Under the pieces are notes generated by a model, which saw only the letters and a program-made list of their open reading frames with translations, was not told where the DNA came from and made no database searches. A stretch of 64,000 nt of DNA from Leptolyngbyaceae cyanobacterium bins.349 (GTDB lineage Bacteria; Cyanobacteriota; Cyanobacteriia; Leptolyngbyales; Leptolyngbyaceae), in assembly GCA_033764685.1 (NCBI GenBank), contig JANRIS010000050.1:98034-162033 (forward strand), given 5' to 3'. Of the stretch, positions 1-6,395 are shown piece by piece (within the stretch, counting starts at the first letter, position 1; each line of letters begins with the position of its first letter). Both the position numbers and the translations under genes were made by a program.

Positions 1-180
1 GCGATAATCACCGGTACGAATACGGTACTCATTGTCAGAACCTTTCATCTTGACCACTCCATCAGGGCGTGGGGCTTCGGCAAGTTCCTGAATCTTGACA
101 GCAATGCGATCGTAAACGTCATCAGGCAAAGCATCTAGCTGTTTCTGCACAGCTTTCGGTGTGATAATGGTGTAAGTCAT
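1..180 (-). CDS. RelE/ParE-family type II toxin, N-terminal part only (the gene runs off the left edge of the window)
   Basis: My own reverse-complement translation from the ATG at 180-178 gives MTYTIITPKAVQKQLDALPDDVYDRIAVKIQELAEAPRPDGVVKMKGSDNEYRIRTGDYR. The KMKG...YRIR.GDYR block is the RelE/ParE core. The start overlaps the stop of the upstream antitoxin ORF (177-179) as ATGA. Confidence 0.65.
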   Translation of the reverse strand, partial: MTYTIITPKAVQKQLDALPDDVYDRIAVKIQELAEAPRPDGVVKMKGSDNEYRIRTGDYR

Positions 181-416
181 GCCGATCGCTCTGCCCGTTG
201 CACCCTGTATTCATCAAAGGTCAGGTAATCCCCTGCTGTGTAATCAGCACGGGCAGCTTGAATTTCAGCAATGTCCTCAGTCGAATCCTCATCGTCGGGA
301 AACAATTCCGCTTCTAAAAGCTCCCAAAGCTGATGTTTTTCAGCAATGCCTAGTGAGGAAATTGCTTGCAACAATGATTGAAATGAGATGTTTACTTTCA
401 CAGTATTGTCAGCCAT
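177..416 (-). CDS. Type II antitoxin-like small acidic protein, partner of the RelE/ParE toxin
   Basis: 79-aa ORF with an acidic centre (DDEDSTED) and a C-terminal AARADYTAGDYLTFDEY motif typical of cyanobacterial RelE/ParE antitoxins. It overlaps the downstream toxin start by 4 nt. A GGAGG-like sequence lies upstream (tggagg at ~424-429 on the minus strand). Confidence 0.6.
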   Translation of the reverse strand: MADNTVKVNISFQSLLQAISSLGIAEKHQLWELLEAELFPDDEDSTEDIAEIQAARADYTAGDYLTFDEYRVQRAERSA

Positions 417-434
417 TAGAACTTACCTCCATTT

Positions 435-529
435 TTATTTTGCATCGTATATTTTTAATTGCTCCTGTGCCCATTCTCGCAGTTGTTCATCGGGATCATT
501 GAGGGCGCGATCGCAAAGCGATCCGAAGT
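435..529 (-). repeat. Orphan copy C of the 3' end of the NACHT-HEAT gene (non-functional remnant)
   Basis: Minus-strand reading gives DFGSLCDRALNDPDEQLREWAQEQLKIYDAK*. Nucleotides 457-514 match 54 of 59 positions of the authentic gene end (about 1577-1635) by hand alignment. Homology begins at a HIP1 site. Confidence 0.8.
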
Positions 530-559
530 CTCAGGACGGTCGAATGGAGGTTAGGAGAG

Positions 560-843
560 TCAGCTATTTTTGTAGACATCACCTCTACTTCCAATCGCAT
601 AAATCTCAACATCGCCGGAATTCATGTCAACTGTAAAAATCAAACGAATTTTGCCAACTCGTAGCCTGTAAAAACCTTCCCATTCTCCTTTCATTTGTTT
701 GAATCGAGTTCTGTAAATGGAATAATGCTTTGCTCTTCAACAGCAGTCAATCGTTGATTTAGCTTCTCTTGAATTCGGCTCAGGGTGTCAGGATCAGTTT
801 TCTCAATAAATTTGATTGCTGGCTTACGAAATTTGATTGCCAT
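560..843 (-). pseudogene. RelE/ParE-family toxin split by an apparent frameshift
   Basis: Hand translation. Piece 1 (843-691) reads MAIKFRKPAIKFIEKTDPDTLSRIQEKLNQRLTAVEEQSIIPFTELDSNK*. Piece 2 (694-560, a different frame) reads MKGEWEGFYRLRVGKIRLIFTVDMNSGDVEIYAIGSRGDVYKNS*. Joined, they make one RelE/ParE-like protein (KG...YRLRVG.IRLIF core). Neither piece reached the 60-aa ORF cutoff. Confidence 0.6.
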
Positions 844-1045
844 GCTTCACCCAAGCAGTCATGTCAATCGCTTTCTCGTCCTGGTAATTGGCAGGTGAGC
901 CAAAGTCAGTCTCTAACTCCGCTTGTTCTTCATCATCCACATAGGGCGTGAGAATTTTGCAAAGTAGCAATCGCTCTTCCCGCAACACTTCCCGCATACT
1001 TTCTTTAATTAGTGCTTTAAGTTCTTGAATCTCCATGCTCATCAC
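824..1045 (-). CDS. Type II antitoxin-like protein, partner of the frameshifted RelE/ParE
   Basis: 73-aa ORF containing PYVDDEEQAELETDFGSPANYQDE...DMTAWVK, a common cyanobacterial RelE-associated antitoxin pattern. Its 3' end overlaps the toxin start at 843 by 20 nt. Confidence 0.55.
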   Translation of the reverse strand: MMSMEIQELKALIKESMREVLREERLLLCKILTPYVDDEEQAELETDFGSPANYQDEKAIDMTAWVKHGNQIS

Positions 1046-1084
1046 CTTTGATTTAAGATTGGTTTGTCTTTCAAGTCGTTTCTA

Positions 1085-1198
1085 TTAGTTTTTCTCCTCT
1101 ATCTTTTTCAACTGCTTCTGTGCCCATTCTCGCAGTTGCTCATCAGGATCGCTGAGGGCGCGATCGCGCAGCAGTTCAAAAGTTTTGGAATGAGTGGG
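1085..1198 (-). repeat. Orphan copy B of the 3' end of the NACHT-HEAT gene (non-functional remnant)
   Basis: Minus-strand reading gives FPTHSKTFELLRDRALSDPDEQLREWAQKQLKKIEEKN*. About 75 of 90 nt are identical to 1577-1666 by hand alignment. It starts immediately after the stop codon of the 1202-1414 ORF. Confidence 0.8.
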
Positions 1199-1201
1199 AA
1201 A

Positions 1202-1414
1202 TTAACCTTTCCAATTTTGTTTAGCTCTGGAAAAGATCTCGTCTAGTTGCTGTTCTTCATAGATCTGACGAAAAATTTCTACATAGTCAGTTGAATTCTG
1301 GTTAATTAATGCTAGAAAGCGCAGAGTTGCTGCCATACCGAGTTCCTGTTTGAGGGTGGCAATTACTCTGACTCGAAGCTGAGCATCATTCATGGCTGGG
1401 ATGGAATCTGTCAT
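1202..1414 (-). CDS. Small conserved antitoxin-like protein (unnamed family)
   Basis: 70-aa ORF. Its start overlaps the stop of the upstream PIN-like stub as ATGA. The pattern ...LRFLALINQNSTDYVEIFRQIYEEQQLDEIFSRAKQNW resembles small proteins I recall next to PIN-type genes in cyanobacteria. This is memory only. Confidence 0.4.
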   Translation of the reverse strand: MTDSIPAMNDAQLRVRVIATLKQELGMAATLRFLALINQNSTDYVEIFRQIYEEQQLDEIFSRAKQNWKG

Positions 1415-1545
1415 GGGGTTTCTCTCCGGATATAATCAACTGGATTCATCACTTCACAAGCTAATGCTTCAATTTGAATGCGAATCTGATTGGGGTCATC
1501 AAATCTTCGCTGAAAGCAGTTGTAGTCCAGGTAAATTAAGTCCAT
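1411..1545 (-). pseudogene. PIN-like toxin, N-terminal stub only (44 codons)
   Basis: MDLIYLDYNCFQRRFDDPNQIRIQIEALACEV resembles the N terminus (first acidic motif, (I/L)YLD..C..RPFDDQ.Q.RI..EAEA) of ~150-aa PIN-like proteins. The ORF stops after 44 codons. Its ATG (1545-1543) overlaps the last codons of the NACHT ORF. Confidence 0.35.
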
Positions 1546-4500
1546 CCGCTTGCTCCTCCCTGGCTCTCCATCTGTTGCAATTGCTCCTGTGCCCATTGGC
1601 GTAGTTGTTCATCGGGGTCATTGAGGGCGCGATCGCGCAGCAGTTCAAGAGTTTTAGGATGAGATGGATGGTAGTTCAGAAATTCATTTAGAATGAACCA
1701 TTTCGACTCTTGTGCTTGTGGAAGAAAATGATGCTGTAGCCATATCAGAGTATCTGTTTTATCACCGTAATGCTCGATTATTTCTTCTACCACTTGTCGC
1801 TGAGGAAACTGCTCAAGTCTGTCAAGAATAAATTGTTGCACCCACGTTAAAGCTGTTGAATTTTTGCCATAGTATCGAACGATTGCTACTAAAGCAGATA
1901 TTTGAACATCTGAATCTTCGTCTTGTTGAGCGTAATTCATCAGCTGTTCTAGAGATTTTGGATCACCTGCGTAATACTCAGCAATTGTGAACACTGCATC
2001 AGATACTCCATTTCTAACCAATGATTGTAGTGATGATAAAGCTTGTGGCTGATTCTTTAAATATCTCCCGATCATCTCTAAGACAAATGATGAAATCACC
2101 TCATCTTTACCGAAGACATCATTCAGCAGCCATGGCAGAGTTTGAGGATCATCTGAAAAATGGCGAGACACTGCTGATACCAGCGGTATTATCTCCCACC
2201 ACTCTGAATTGTCAATCATCTCCCACTGCTCTTTCAGCCATAGAAGCGTATCTGATCTATCTTGAAAATACTTGGAAATTCGATTGCAAATTGCATAGAG
2301 AATATCATGCAGATTTTCCAGAAGATTATGGTTGTTCTTGGTGGAAAACTTAGCTGCTAAAAGACTAGAAGAATGATCTTTATAAAACTCTTTCAGCATT
2401 GATAATAATCGAGAACCAATTAACTCAGTTATTTCTGATTTTCCTATCTCTCCGAAGCAATCAGTTGCGATCAAAAGTTTCTTCAGTGAATGGCTTGCCT
2501 GATATCCCTCATACTCTTCATCACCTTCAGGACAACCGAAATCTTCATCAATGTACTCAGGCTCTTGTTTTATCAGAAACTCGATTAACTCACCTGCAAA
2601 CCTAGGATCGATCGCCCCACAAATGAGCCTCAAAACCTCATGCCAAGTTTCATCTTGCCAATGGTTCCCAAACACCTCATCGCGGAGTTGTTCAAAGGTG
2701 AGGGTGCGTTGTTTTTCAAAGCGATGAACAATTTCAACGGCACAAAAATATTCTAAAAAGGTGCGGTGCATGAAGCCGTAGGTGTCGGCTCCGCGATAGC
2801 AGAGGATGAAGTTGCGTTCTCGGAGTTGTTGAATTAAGCGATTGGCTTTTTCACGGGGTTCGCTGAAGCCCTGATCACGCAAATAGTCCGTCAAAATGCG
2901 GGTGAGGCGATCGCTGCTAATCAAATTTCCCTTTAGACCTTCTTCGCCTGCCTGCATCTCATAGGCGATCGCCCGCAACATCTCCTTTTTTTCTCGTCGC
3001 CCGATCGCGTCCATTGGGATCTGCAACTGCTTATGGTCTACATCCCAGTGGTAGAGCAACACGCGCGAAGCCTGATCGTAGAGATCGGCGCGATCGCGGG
3101 GGAGTTCCTGCCGTCGATTCAGGATTGCCATCATCGTCAGCAACAGCGGATTATCTGCCAGGTTGGCGATCGCTTTAGAGTTGGCGATCGCATCCTTCAA
3201 GCGCTGTTTTAGCCGGACTTTATCGGGATCGCTGCCCATTGAGAGGTCATACCAACGATCGATGAATTCGTGCATCTCGTCGGTATTGAGGGATTGAATG
3301 GTGAAGTGTCGGAATCCGCTGTGCTGAAGGCGATCGGGGTTGTAACCGATGCTGCGGGATGTGACTAATATCTGAGCTTTGGGATATTGCTGGGAAAAGC
3401 GAATGATGTCATCGATGACGGTGGCTTGGGTGGCGCGATCGAACACCTCATCCAGACCATCAAACATCACCCGCGTTGGATTCTCTAGCAAATGCTGATG
3501 TAATTGTTGCTGATCAAACTGCCAATCGACACCGCGACCTCGATGCAAAAATTCGAGGAAGTTAGCAGATGGATTGATGGCAAATTCTCGCAACTCAATC
3601 AATAAGGGCAGTTTTTCTGTTTTGACCTCGACCCACTCCAGTGCCAGATATTGCAACAGACTCGACTTACCCGAACCTGGATCGCCCAGAATTACTGCCC
3701 GTTGTGCGTAAGATTCGATCCCCCTAAATCCCTCTTGAAAAGGGGGACTTTCACTTTCGGTTCCCTCCTTGTTAAGGAGGGCTAGGGAGGATCGCCCCTG
3801 TCCGATCACCTCGAAAACTTTTCGGGCAGGTTGCGTCCAGAAGTCAGACTTCTCTAAGAAGTCCGACTTCTGGACATCGCGAGGCAGGTCATAGCGCAGG
3901 GGGGGCAGGGCTTCTCGTACCGTTTGCTCGATGAACATAGCCCAGAGCTTGATGGCATCGGCGCGATCGGTGCTGTCGAGGGTAAACAACCTCAAATAGC
4001 CATAATTAGTCTGCAAAGTATGGCGATACGTCTCAATATCAAATCCGGGTGAGAGTTGCGCCGTATTGCGGGCAATGTTTTCCAGGAGTTCGGTGTCCAG
4101 GAGCGATCGCAATTCTGGCGATTCTCGCACAATCCGCCGCACTTTTTTGACATATTCGCTGCCAATCCGCTGCCAATCGAAATCTGCTGGCATGGGCGGA
4201 AAGGGTTGCTGCCTGAATAAAGACTTTTGCCAGGTTGCTGACAGCGTTTCAATGTCAATCGCACGACAGTCTTGCTCAAATGCCTTGCCCAGAATCGGTT
4301 TTACCGTGTCATCCTGAACAAACTGAAGTAAGGGTTGCTCATAGCGATCGCGAATCGCTAATTCCGAAATCCCCTGATCCAGCAACTCATCTTCTACGAG
4401 CAGTAAAAAGGCTTGTAATGCCTCTGCGATCGCTTTCTTTGCTGCCTCTGGTTTGGCCGCGACAACCCCGTCCTTCAAACATCCTTTGAAAAAATCTTTC

Positions 4501-4598
4501 ACATAATCTTCAGCGGCAGCCTGTCCTAACTTCAAGACTTGCTCAAAGATGACTTTTCCCAGTTCTGCGGTGGCAATCGTCGCGAACCATTCCAGCAT
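1536..4598 (-). CDS. NACHT (STAND) P-loop NTPase with an uncharacterised ~300-aa helical N-terminal domain and C-terminal HEAT-like repeats
   Basis: 1020-aa ORF. Walker A is AVILGDPGSGKSSLLQYLA and Walker B is RVMFDGLDEV, followed by ILVTSR, the usual NACHT layout. The C-terminal third is helical repeats ending in RDRALNDPDEQLRQWAQEQL, a HEAT/PBS-lyase-like repeat. Confidence 0.85.
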   Translation of the reverse strand: MLEWFATIATAELGKVIFEQVLKLGQAAAEDYVKDFFKGCLKDGVVAAKPEAAKKAIAEALQAFLLLVEDELLDQGISELAIRDRYEQPLLQFVQDDTVKPILGKAFEQDCRAIDIETLSATWQKSLFRQQPFPPMPADFDWQRIGSEYVKKVRRIVRESPELRSLLDTELLENIARNTAQLSPGFDIETYRHTLQTNYGYLRLFTLDSTDRADAIKLWAMFIEQTVREALPPLRYDLPRDVQKSDFLEKSDFWTQPARKVFEVIGQGRSSLALLNKEGTESESPPFQEGFRGIESYAQRAVILGDPGSGKSSLLQYLALEWVEVKTEKLPLLIELREFAINPSANFLEFLHRGRGVDWQFDQQQLHQHLLENPTRVMFDGLDEVFDRATQATVIDDIIRFSQQYPKAQILVTSRSIGYNPDRLQHSGFRHFTIQSLNTDEMHEFIDRWYDLSMGSDPDKVRLKQRLKDAIANSKAIANLADNPLLLTMMAILNRRQELPRDRADLYDQASRVLLYHWDVDHKQLQIPMDAIGRREKKEMLRAIAYEMQAGEEGLKGNLISSDRLTRILTDYLRDQGFSEPREKANRLIQQLRERNFILCYRGADTYGFMHRTFLEYFCAVEIVHRFEKQRTLTFEQLRDEVFGNHWQDETWHEVLRLICGAIDPRFAGELIEFLIKQEPEYIDEDFGCPEGDEEYEGYQASHSLKKLLIATDCFGEIGKSEITELIGSRLLSMLKEFYKDHSSSLLAAKFSTKNNHNLLENLHDILYAICNRISKYFQDRSDTLLWLKEQWEMIDNSEWWEIIPLVSAVSRHFSDDPQTLPWLLNDVFGKDEVISSFVLEMIGRYLKNQPQALSSLQSLVRNGVSDAVFTIAEYYAGDPKSLEQLMNYAQQDEDSDVQISALVAIVRYYGKNSTALTWVQQFILDRLEQFPQRQVVEEIIEHYGDKTDTLIWLQHHFLPQAQESKWFILNEFLNYHPSHPKTLELLRDRALNDPDEQLRQWAQEQLQQMESQGGASGWT
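3717..3793. repeat. Small palindromic dispersed-repeat-like insertion inside the NACHT ORF, in frame
   Basis: The ends gatccccCTA / TAGggaggatc form inverted termini. A perfect internal hairpin ccctcctt-gtt-aaggaggg lies at 3763-3781. It encodes ...LNKEGTESESPPFQEGFRGIE just N-terminal of the P-loop (P-loop DNA at about 3663-3690). Confidence 0.55.
3836..3874. repeat. Two adjacent copies of a 15-nt hairpin (agaagtcNgacttct) forming a 39-nt near-palindrome inside the NACHT ORF
   Basis: The sequence tccagaagtcagacttctctaagaagtccgacttctgga nearly equals its own reverse complement. It encodes the duplicated peptide QKSDFLEKSDFW. Confidence 0.7.
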
Positions 4599-4883: not shown

Positions 4884-6395
4884 ATGGCGAGAGATCTTCA
4901 AGGGTTTATTCAACTGCTAGAGCAAAAGGGCAACCTGCGCCGCATCTCGGCACTGGTAGATCCCAATTTGGAAATTGCCGAAATTGCGAATCGGATGTTG
5001 CAAAGCGGTGGTCCGGCGCTCTTGTTTGAAAACGTGAAGGGGTCGCCTTATCCTGTGGCCATTAACCTGATGGGGACCGTCGAGCGGGTTTGCTGGGCCA
5101 TGAACATGGAGCACCCCGCAGAATTAGAAACGCTGGGTCAAAAACTGGCACTACTGTATCAACCGCGCCCGCCCAAAAAGATTTCGCAAGCGGTGGAGTT
5201 GGGCAAAGCCTTGTTTGATGTGATTAAAGCGAAACCCGATCGCGATTTGTTTCCCCCCTGTCAGCAAGTGGTGTTGAAAGGCGATGAGGTGGATTTGACC
5301 AAGCTGCCGTTGCTTAGAGTCTATCCGGGGGATGCGGCGAAGGTGATCACCTTAGGCTTGATGATTACCAAAGACCCCGAAAATAAAACGGTGAATGTGG
5401 GGGTGTATCGCCTGCAATTGCAATCCAAAAATACGATGACGGTGCAATGGCTTTCAGTGCGGGGCGCGACACGCCATCTTCGCAAAGCCGCCGAAATGGG
5501 TAAGAAGTTAGAAGTGGCGATCGCGATCGGGGTAGATCCACTTGTAATCATGGCGGCGGCGACTCCGCTTCCGGTGGACTTATCAGAATGGCTATTTGCT
5601 GGACTTTACAGCGGTCGAGGAATTAACTTAGCAAAATGCAAAACCGTGGATCTGGAAGTGCCTGCCGATTCTGAGTTTGTGCTGGAGGGCACGATTACTC
5701 CCGGTGAGGTGGCGATCGATGGTCCTGCTGGCGATCACATGGGCTATTACGGCGGGGTGAATGAAAAAGCGCCCCTGCTGCATTTCCACTGTATGACTCA
5801 TCGCAAAAACCCGATTTACCTGACTACGTTTAGTGGTCGTCCGCCGAAAGAAGACGCGATGATGGCGATCGCCCTCAACCGGATTTACACCCCCATCCTG
5901 CGGCAACAGGTGCCGGAAATTGTGGATTTCTTCCTGCCGATGGAAGGGCTGTCTTACAAAATTGCGGTGATTGCGATCGACAAAGCTTATCCTGGTCATG
6001 CGCGGCGGGCGGCGTTAGCCTTCTGGACCGCACTGCCCCAGTTCAACTACACCAAATTTGTGGTTGTCGTAGACAAGGACATTAACATCCGCGATCCGCG
6101 TCAGGTGGTATGGGCCATCACTTCTAAGGTGGATGCGGTGCGAGATGTGTTCATTCTGCCAGATAACCATTTTGACTCCCTAGACTTTGCCACCGAACGC
6201 CCCGGACTCGGCAGCCGTATGGGCATCGACGCGACAACGAAAATGTACCCTGAAAGCGATCGCCCCTGGAGCGATACCCTGGAACCGGATCCTGACACCG
6301 CTGCAATGGTCGATCGCCGTTGGGCAGAATATGGCTTAGCCGACTTGAAACTGGACGAGGTGAATCCCAACCTGTTTGGCTATGATGTGAAGTAG
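4884..6395 (+). CDS. ubiD: UbiD-family (de)carboxylase (4-hydroxy-3-polyprenylbenzoate decarboxylase type, plastoquinone/ubiquinone pathway)
   Basis: 503 aa. The N terminus MARDLQGFIQLLEQKGNLRRISALVDPNLEIAEIANR...GGPALLFENVKG and the overall length are characteristic of UbiD. Confidence 0.9.
   Translation: MARDLQGFIQLLEQKGNLRRISALVDPNLEIAEIANRMLQSGGPALLFENVKGSPYPVAINLMGTVERVCWAMNMEHPAELETLGQKLALLYQPRPPKKISQAVELGKALFDVIKAKPDRDLFPPCQQVVLKGDEVDLTKLPLLRVYPGDAAKVITLGLMITKDPENKTVNVGVYRLQLQSKNTMTVQWLSVRGATRHLRKAAEMGKKLEVAIAIGVDPLVIMAAATPLPVDLSEWLFAGLYSGRGINLAKCKTVDLEVPADSEFVLEGTITPGEVAIDGPAGDHMGYYGGVNEKAPLLHFHCMTHRKNPIYLTTFSGRPPKEDAMMAIALNRIYTPILRQQVPEIVDFFLPMEGLSYKIAVIAIDKAYPGHARRAALAFWTALPQFNYTKFVVVVDKDINIRDPRQVVWAITSKVDAVRDVFILPDNHFDSLDFATERPGLGSRMGIDATTKMYPESDRPWSDTLEPDPDTAAMVDRRWAEYGLADLKLDEVNPNLFGYDVK

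Follow-up and report, generated by a model that had tools for sequence, protein, structure and literature searches.

At the left end of a 64,000-nt stretch of DNA from Leptolyngbyaceae cyanobacterium bins.349 (the window; contig JANRIS010000050.1, positions 98,034 to 162,033), a gene of the NACHT-HEAT family is followed by an array of compact toxin-antitoxin (TA) cassettes, and a direct copy of the gene's last codons precedes each of them. Similar arrays recur in other filamentous cyanobacteria. From comparison of these sequences we consider it, on balance, somewhat probable that recombination anchored on the conserved gene end inserts, exchanges and displaces TA cassettes. A first-pass annotation of the window had proposed either that elements with a replacement 3' end were inserted serially or that exchange anchored on the shared motif took place repeatedly. 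The comparative data support that general picture; they favour exchange inside the repeat over insertion with a replacement end, without proving it.

A repeat search of the window reveals one family of 103-nt direct repeats, with copies at 444-546, 1097-1199 and 1566-1668. A 32-nt degenerate core matches these three sites alone in the 64 kb, where none is expected (100 shuffles), so that the three direct copies of the NACHT 3' end described in the first-pass annotation are real; the peptides quoted for them were also correct. Copy A (1530..1686, core 1566-1668, minus strand, as are all the copies and cassettes described here) is the NACHT gene's own 3' end; it encodes HPSHPKTLELLRDRALNDPDEQLRQWAQEQLQQMESQGGASGWT followed by the stop codon, and includes the HIP1 palindrome GCGCGATCGCGC. 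Copies B (1076..1205) and C (416..552) are orphans. Copy B starts right behind the TAA of the preceding 70-aa gene and has neither a start codon nor a gene body; only 19 open codons precede its DEQLR motif, and only 13 precede that of copy C, in line with the earlier claim that both lack a gene body. Over an 84-nt core, identity is 0.85 between A and B and 0.81 between A and C. Copy C is canonical from the HIP1 site on. It had been thought that its homology begins there; high identity does, but degraded homology (about 58%, with two indels) runs some 45 nt further upstream. As had been noticed, a two-gene module follows each copy: a stub and a 70-aa gene behind A, an antitoxin and a frameshifted ParE behind B, and an antitoxin and a ParE that leaves the window behind C. 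The ATG of the stub overlaps the stop codon of the NACHT gene by 10 nt; an overlap there had been noted.

The suspicion that the array continues past the left edge is borne out by L001, a public 4.6-kb contig found via the 79-aa antitoxin of the third cassette. Its DNA is identical to that of the window (window position = 3794 - L001 position; copy A is at L001 2108-2264), and it adds about 800 nt to the left before ending in a repeat. About 80-770 nt past window position 1 it contains copy D (L001 3867-4018; MISYRSDYPKTLELLRDRAINDLDEQLRQWAQEQLEKLKM followed by the stop codon) and a RelN-like/RelE-like pair. With this fourth copy and fourth pair, the array has at least four units. L001 ends in CCTCAGCCTAAGTCCCTCTCCCAGAGCGGGAGAGGGATT (4530-4598, or about 740-800 nt beyond window position 1 on the left). 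This sequence is palindromic and repeat-like, interrupts the end of the cassette 4 toxin gene, and probably broke the assembly there.

The gene that supplies the repeat (1536..4598, minus strand, 1020 aa) encodes an NNH2-NACHT-HEAT protein, an NLR-like STAND NTPase (NNH2 3.9e-60, NACHT 5.7e-14, HEAT_2 1.1e-7). It has the NACHT domain, the N-terminal adaptor/effector region and the C-terminal repeat sensor by which bacterial NACHT/NLR-like STAND NTPases are recognised. Similarities between the window gene and the named antiphage NACHT families are weak and sub-threshold, and the gene is therefore not assigned to a named defence system. Its NACHT/winged-helix part is conserved, its HEAT part is hypervariable, and its last 30 or so codons are conserved again: among 28 full-length genes of the family, amino-acid identity is 0.8-0.9 in the first, falls to 0.2-0.3 over the HEAT part (about 270 aa), and returns to 0.6-0.9 in the last 30 codons. 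In genome pairs that are 86-92% identical in DNA over the NACHT part, similarity is undetectable through about 800 nt of HEAT sequence and resumes at the repeat, which argues that the repeat also marks the right-hand limit of a sensor segment that can be replaced. From such comparisons the HEAT sensor segment looks like the subject of wholesale replacement between close relatives. (The segment corresponds to window 1700-2500; the break is seen in L011/L006/L048, L008/L024/L045 and L016/L051, with breakpoints fixed on both sides.) The closest full-length match to the window allele among species representatives has only 56% amino-acid identity, no database record of the window protein was found, and a window-specific 30-mer had zero matches in metagenomes.

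To see how widely the arrangement recurs, a single genome of each species was scanned for DEQLR[QE]WAQ with a degenerate pattern at the protein level. The scan returned 55 DNA stretches, 50 of them cyanobacterial by sequence, from Nodosilinea, Leptolyngbyaceae, Elainella, Stenomitos, Microcoleus, Tychonema, Egbenema and others. (It should be noted that these loci, numbered L001 and so on, are 8-kb cuts, so that arrays may be longer than they appear, and that many come from metagenome-assembled genomes.) The NACHT-HEAT genes that end in the DEQLR motif are homologues of the window gene and encode about 900-1250 aa. A nucleotide profile recovers 83 copies of the repeat: 42 are orphans, 31 are gene ends, and the other 10 end truncated genes. 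The motif is thus the C-terminus of one NACHT-HEAT family plus orphans in the arrays behind it, which argues against a repeat dispersed genome-wide, an outcome that the first-pass annotation had named as fatal to its proposal. Two to four direct copies, spaced 400-1250 nt apart, occur in 20 loci (L001 included); four copies lie within 8 kb in each of L014, L039, L043 and L051. Between the copies lie a PIN-family gene with the 70-aa gene, HigB/HigA, the 79-aa antitoxin with ParE, an AF2212-like VapB with PIN, a RelN-like gene with a RelE-like one, RelE/YafQ-like genes, and DUF2283 pairs.

The repeat core spans about 90 nt, from CCCATCCCAAAAC to TGGGCACAG, as defined by motif-anchored alignment and profile occupancy. 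Its left edge in the orphans is sharp: 84% of them hold the core from profile column 24 on, few reach 12 nt further left, and occupancy rises from 0.12-0.46 to 0.84 within about 12 columns. Usually the last gene of the preceding cassette has its stop codon immediately before this edge. On its right the core is followed by a tail of about 40 nt, which extends up to the Shine-Dalgarno sequence (AAAATGGAGG) of the next gene. Different loci have 176 cassette pairs in common, at 67-99% nucleotide identity, and the homology of a shared cassette begins about 1-20 nt from the right end of one repeat and ends about 0-10 nt from the next. In addition, five arrays (L008, L024, L028, L039 and L044) end in an orphan that has neither a cassette nor the tail. 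The flush cassette homology and these terminal orphans argue that cassettes are discrete modules, often bounded on both sides by the core; indeed, terminal orphans are expected if cassettes are flanked on both sides.

The copies carry the marks of a coding history. Because the search pattern fixed nine codons, divergence statistics were taken from neighbouring codons. Between an orphan and its nearest gene end, the ratio of nonsynonymous to synonymous differences per site (pN/pS) is 0.35 in the five codons before the motif (pS 0.41) and 0.15 in the three codons after it (pS 0.54); gene ends compared with one another give 0.27 and 0.08 in the same two blocks. Within the window array, synonymous differences amount to 8 in 18.8 sites for A-B and 7 in 19 sites for A-D. 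Synonymous divergence within arrays matches that between genera, and almost every copy of five arrays has its nearest relative in another genome. The copies are consequently not recent local duplicates. On this evidence they diverged as coding gene ends and were brought together later.

The points of exchange can be seen by comparing loci that share cassettes. In such pairs, the repeat cores both upstream and downstream show no more similarity (0.67/0.80) than the background (0.66/0.78); only the tail of about 40 nt beside the cassette is linked to it (0.54 vs 0.41). Between L033 and L041, 97% identity runs from the gene end through the first cassette and on through the second repeat; directly after WAQ the two part into different cassettes, and later they re-join at 92%. 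The first cassette is common to L008, L024, L045, L014 and the window, where the following content differs, and the cassette at a given position differs between related genomes. The repeat that comes next after the shared PIN-family cassette has a degraded left part and a canonical right part, and the switch point varies among the window, L014, L045 and L035. Taken together, a core unlinked from its flanks, the break between L033 and L041, and the varying switches argue that crossovers fall within the core, and at more than one place in it.

In the process that we propose, the conserved last 90 nt or so of the family gene would act as a portable homology anchor for compact type II TA cassettes. 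A cassette consists of a short leader with a ribosome-binding site and two genes, flanked in the donor array by two copies of the repeat. Repeat-cassette-repeat DNA from another cyanobacterium, or a looped-out circle, would cross over with the single gene-end repeat of the recipient, whose gene would retain an intact, possibly hybrid, C-terminus; the cassette would settle directly behind the gene, and the second gene-end copy would remain downstream. Repeated rounds would stack cassettes, and TA addiction would slow their loss. We infer the transfer route, and general homologous recombination as the enzyme, from the form of the arrays. The array is probably transcribed together with the NACHT gene, since a single strand is used throughout, the first cassette overlaps the gene's stop codon, and terminators were not detected in it. 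The NACHT protein and the toxins may also be functionally connected.

Several observations weigh against anchored exchange of this kind. When copies of different loci are compared, the median length of the longest identical run is 14 nt, and only 21% of pairs have a run of 20 nt or more; such lengths are marginal for RecA-type exchange. The longest runs also fall in the DEQLREWAQ block and not at the HIP1 centre, where other peculiarities of the orphans are concentrated. All ten insertions of 22-29 nt found among the 42 orphans follow the same column, the HIP1 centre, and none of the 31 gene ends has one; simple homology length does not predict these inserts, nor several of the switches from degraded to canonical sequence that occur there. 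Furthermore, orphans are as near the consensus as functional gene ends, and this conservation needs recent displacement, ongoing gene conversion or some function at the DNA level. How the first duplicated gene end arose falls outside the exchange model, and no close strain was available for a presence/absence comparison at the exact locus of the window. A simpler rule, in which breakpoints are set by the longest identical run, was discarded: it fits the WAQ block and fails at HIP1.

These same features lend some weight to a dedicated site-specific system, in which the HIP1-centred core of about 90 nt (GCGCGATCGCGC) would be the attachment site of a recombinase or nuclease encoded elsewhere, and circular cassettes would be captured at the gene end, much as in an integron except that the att site codes for protein. 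The narrow left edge shared by the orphans is what such a system would leave, although one founder duplication of all orphans would equally give a fixed edge. Insertions at a single column, a 22-nt insert that in cyanobacterial metagenome DNA is confined to the repeat, the change of character at HIP1 in copy C, L045.1, L035.1 and L042.1, and identical runs too short for comfortable RecA exchange all point the same way. However, no recombinase gene recurs in the 50 loci, and none lies within about 8 kb upstream of the array in the window; RAYT-like Y1 transposases are found in three of the 50 (L016, L040 and L051) and a tyrosine recombinase in two. Beyond HIP1 the core lacks inverted-repeat arms, and four copies folded as DNA on both strands gave no significant attC-like fold (z from -0.84 to +0.66). 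HIP1 itself is missing from about half of the gene ends, which code RDRA as GACAGAGCC, and further breakpoints lie after WAQ or elsewhere. A dedicated system is thus rather unlikely. A more specific version, in which the gene end is the attachment site of an undescribed cyanobacterial cassette-capture system, a factor encoded elsewhere cuts and rejoins at HIP1, and NLR-like immune genes in this way collect and exchange TA effectors, would be distinctly unlikely, but if true it would give HIP1 a direct function in recombination.

Whatever their origin, the HIP1-centre insertions offer a concrete place to study HIP1 action. Their sequences fall into at least three types, they come from at least eight genomes, and they are 22, 26 or 29 nt long, with the hairpins TCTC-GTA-GAGA, CACA-TTAG-TGTG with GCGAAGC, and ACTCC-TTT-GGAGT. 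The orphans that bear them are L004:7397, L015:2203-2377, L021:6903, L029:768, L033:4034, L035:5814-5972, L041:3124, L051:5293/6144/7206 and L052:96, together with metagenome orphans in L060, L069 (two), L073 and L075. Their absence from gene ends is understandable because selection would remove them there. No such insert occurs elsewhere in the loci or in the window's own copies. Since cyanobacterial metagenome contigs have the 22-nt insert inside the repeat only, it is an orphan-specific variant that spreads with the arrays, not a general mobile sequence. A REP-like mobile origin was considered for it and is unsupported, the 13 other metagenome matches being unrelated high-GC sequence.

A different view of the orphans is that they are kept as DNA or RNA leaders, with a shared promoter, operator or translation signals, and that the array is mainly an expression platform. 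With every type of cassette the repeat does reach the Shine-Dalgarno sequence of the next gene, so that the cassette-specific leader is only about 10-40 nt long; internal orphans are conserved like gene ends, while the terminal, cassette-less orphans of L008 and L024 are degraded; and first cassettes overlap the NACHT stop codon. Yet neither a sigma-70-like promoter nor a terminator was found on the coding strand of the window repeats, and the repeats match no Rfam family or riboswitch at E<=1. The mostly synonymous substitutions of the orphans fit a coding history, and relatives of the same TA genes (69-72%) on cyanobacterial plasmids do without the repeat. A leader function is decidedly doubtful as the main explanation; being silent on how copies arise, it complements an account by recombination. 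Translation of the orphans into a mini-protein was also considered and rejected, as copy B has no start codon and the frames relative to the preceding gene vary.

That the orphans are remnants of tandem full-length NACHT-HEAT paralogues, each with its TA pair, whose gene bodies were deleted, is highly improbable and already largely refuted: ten copies do lie at the ends of genes that are truncated or interrupted and 90-300 codons long (L010, L013, L018, L020, L021, L025, L043 and others) and some genomes have several loci (three in Elainella saxicola, two in Stenomitos rutilans), but decay would need dozens of independent deletions running from a cassette stop to the same point about 55 nt before the DEQ motif, recombination between tandem paralogues yields chimeric genes and not orphan ends, and four-copy arrays fit into 2-3 kb with no trace of NACHT sequence between copies. 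The same conclusion speaks against the second outcome that had been named as fatal to the original proposal, given that 84% of orphans start in the same zone of about 12 nt after a cassette stop. A diversity-generating retroelement was rejected as well, since differences between copies span all bases and are mostly synonymous, and the array contains no reverse-transcriptase-sized open reading frame.

Exchange anchored on a gene end has parallels in known systems. In Rhs and CdiA-CT/CdiI (contact-dependent inhibition) loci, modules are displaced and orphan module arrays are formed (Jackson et al. 2009, as cited in PMC5361080; PMC3150448; PMC3482391). There, as here, a conserved stretch precedes a variable end, older ends keep a piece of the conserved stretch and line up downstream along with their small cognate genes, strains share modules by horizontal transfer, and the proposed driver is recombination within that stretch. 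The 42 orphans, each located before a cassette or at the end of an array, are orphan modules of this type that keep a conserved-region fragment. The NACHT locus does not, however, encode a secreted toxin with a variable C-terminal toxin domain and an immunity gene. Its host gene is an intracellular (cytoplasmic-type) STAND NTPase; the variable part is a tail of 6-25 codons, with no domain, plus a free-standing two-gene TA operon; and the conserved stretch is the extreme C-terminus, with cassettes often flanked by the repeat on both sides.

The type VI effector-immunity arrays of Vibrio cholerae (PMC5361080) are also built by sequential addition at one position with displacement of older genes downstream, and their members come from different donors and not from duplication, with no dedicated integrase. 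They consist mostly of orphan immunity genes, and homology-facilitated illegitimate recombination has been invoked for them (PMC5361080), whereas the arrays described here are of complete TA pairs, each behind a copy of about 100 nt of the upstream gene's end. Integrons are similar in their compact, co-oriented cassettes with little promoter room, a recurring element of about 60-150 nt and a fixed neighbouring gene. TA cassettes are common cargo in chromosomal integrons. Although co-oriented compact cassettes and a recurring element are present in these arrays, neither intI nor attC hairpins were found, and an integron was rejected because there is no attC fold and no intI; the recurring element is instead protein-coding sequence of the neighbouring gene, which supplies leader and ribosome-binding site.

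Another parallel is the MaOC1 orthocaspase gene of Microcystis aeruginosa, behind which a ParDE-like pair is fenced by two identical 152-bp direct repeats (PMC7935541). The MaOC1 protease cleaves the antitoxin, suggesting a functional tie (PMC7935541). In both cases a type II TA pair comes directly after a cyanobacterial gene of the cell-death/immunity type, and direct repeats of about 150 bp bound the pair. The MaOC1 repeat differs in that it lies outside the gene (14 bp after the stop) and contains an inverted repeat, and a single module in few Microcystis strains is reported there, not an array or a multi-genus cassette pool. Integrative islands that target the 3' ends of tRNA or protein genes likewise leave the target intact, with displaced partial 3' ends marking the far side, and can form tandem arrays; these islands, however, are kilobases long with their own integrase, whereas the units here are 0.4-1.2 kb, contain TA genes only, and have no recombinase: an integrase of their own with att repeats is not seen in the TA units. 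The pdif modules of Acinetobacter have 28-nt XerC/XerD sites in alternating orientation, in contrast to repeats that are all direct and about 100 nt long. A search of literature full text found no description of TA cassette arrays separated by the coding end of a STAND NTPase gene. The earlier statement that no described mechanism stacks TA cassettes in this way stands, on that search, for arrays behind a STAND NTPase and fails for displacement arrays as such, which are known from Rhs, CDI and type VI secretion loci.

If anchored exchange is correct, it would be an integrase-free route to build and shuffle cassette arrays, with a short, protein-constrained gene end serving as homology across genera. 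An NLR-like sensor is joined physically, and probably transcriptionally, to a changing set of TA pairs, which echoes the orthocaspase-TA arrangement of Microcystis and makes functional coupling testable. One anchor may serve both the swapping of sensors and the stacking of cassettes.

The cargo has the form expected of type II TA modules, with two small, adjacent or overlapping genes, one of them in a known toxin family; the toxins named here are putative. In cassette 1, the first gene (1411..1545) is a 44-aa stub, the remnant of a 147-aa VapC/PIN-family toxin after an in-frame deletion between two ALAC motifs; relative to the 147-aa form (L008 6067-6510, in NACHT-forward orientation) it lacks about 103 codons, in frame. 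Homologues of the 147-aa protein (62-70% identity) bear the name VapC and contain PF01850 (PIN). For the 147-aa and 70-aa proteins themselves there is no direct match in Pfam, NCBIfam, PADLOC, PHROGs or PDB sequences, so that the earlier description of the stub as PIN-like stands through the annotation of homologues and not through a direct Pfam match. The second gene (1202..1414), for the 70-aa partner, matches no family but is invariably paired in other genomes with the 147-aa PIN-family gene. Cassette 2 contains a RelB-like antitoxin of 73 aa (824..1045) and a ParE/RelE-family toxin pseudogene (560..843; ParE_toxin 4.4e-4 for the fragment) that a frameshift divides into open reading frames of 50 and 44 aa; intact 94-aa homologues are present in L016, L023, L039 and L043. 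In cassette 3, an intact 79-aa antitoxin (177..416) is followed by a putative ParE (1..180; ParE_toxin 1.5e-10) of 86 aa in full, whose first 60 codons are in the window and the remainder beyond its left edge. The 79-aa antitoxin cassette is also found behind the repeat in L004, L009, L010, L015, L026, L032, L046 and L049. Cassette 4 (L001 4024-4558, outside the window) has a RelN-like antitoxin (2.9e-7) and a RelE_StbE toxin (6.9e-4). Other arrays contain HigB (6.2e-21), PIN (5e-11), AF2212-like (3e-14) and DUF2283 (1.2e-11) genes. Cassette genes had zero matches among phage sequences.

Decay in the window follows a pattern in which toxins go first and partners stay: the toxin of cassette 1 has lost codons and that of cassette 2 is frameshifted, and the 70-aa partner is intact. 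L045 likewise holds a shortened copy of the PIN-family toxin. Inside the arrays of two loci a RAYT-like Y1 (IS200-like) transposase gene (PF01797, 7.8e-6) replaces HigB before a HigA-like gene (L016 4402-4860 and L051 4419-4886), and a homologous open reading frame lies about 900 nt downstream of a repeat copy in L040 (5722-6213; all three in the orientation where the repeat reads forward).

Three Microcoleus genomes have the 79-aa antitoxin/ParE cassette in a locus with no detected homologue of the NACHT-HEAT family (L009 533-870, L026 4535-4800, L046 400-981); in L026 and L046 the sole STAND-like match is about 25% identical and more than 2 kb away. These cassettes are preceded by the right half of the repeat alone, with the junction at GCGATCG in two of the three, and it seems that the cassette escaped together with a portion of its anchor. 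L054, titled as a Planctomycetaceae bacterium metagenome-assembled genome, contains a typical cyanobacterial NACHT-HEAT gene, the repeat and the start of a PIN-family cassette; the contig is probably a binning contaminant in that genome. Finally, a UbiD-family decarboxylase gene (window 4884-6395, plus strand) adjoins the NACHT gene, and UbiD homologues with 78% amino-acid identity lie beside the family gene in two Microcoleus genomes (L011 212-1717 and L048 1217-2722), the orientation in the window being opposite; this adjacency is either old synteny with an inversion or a coincidence.

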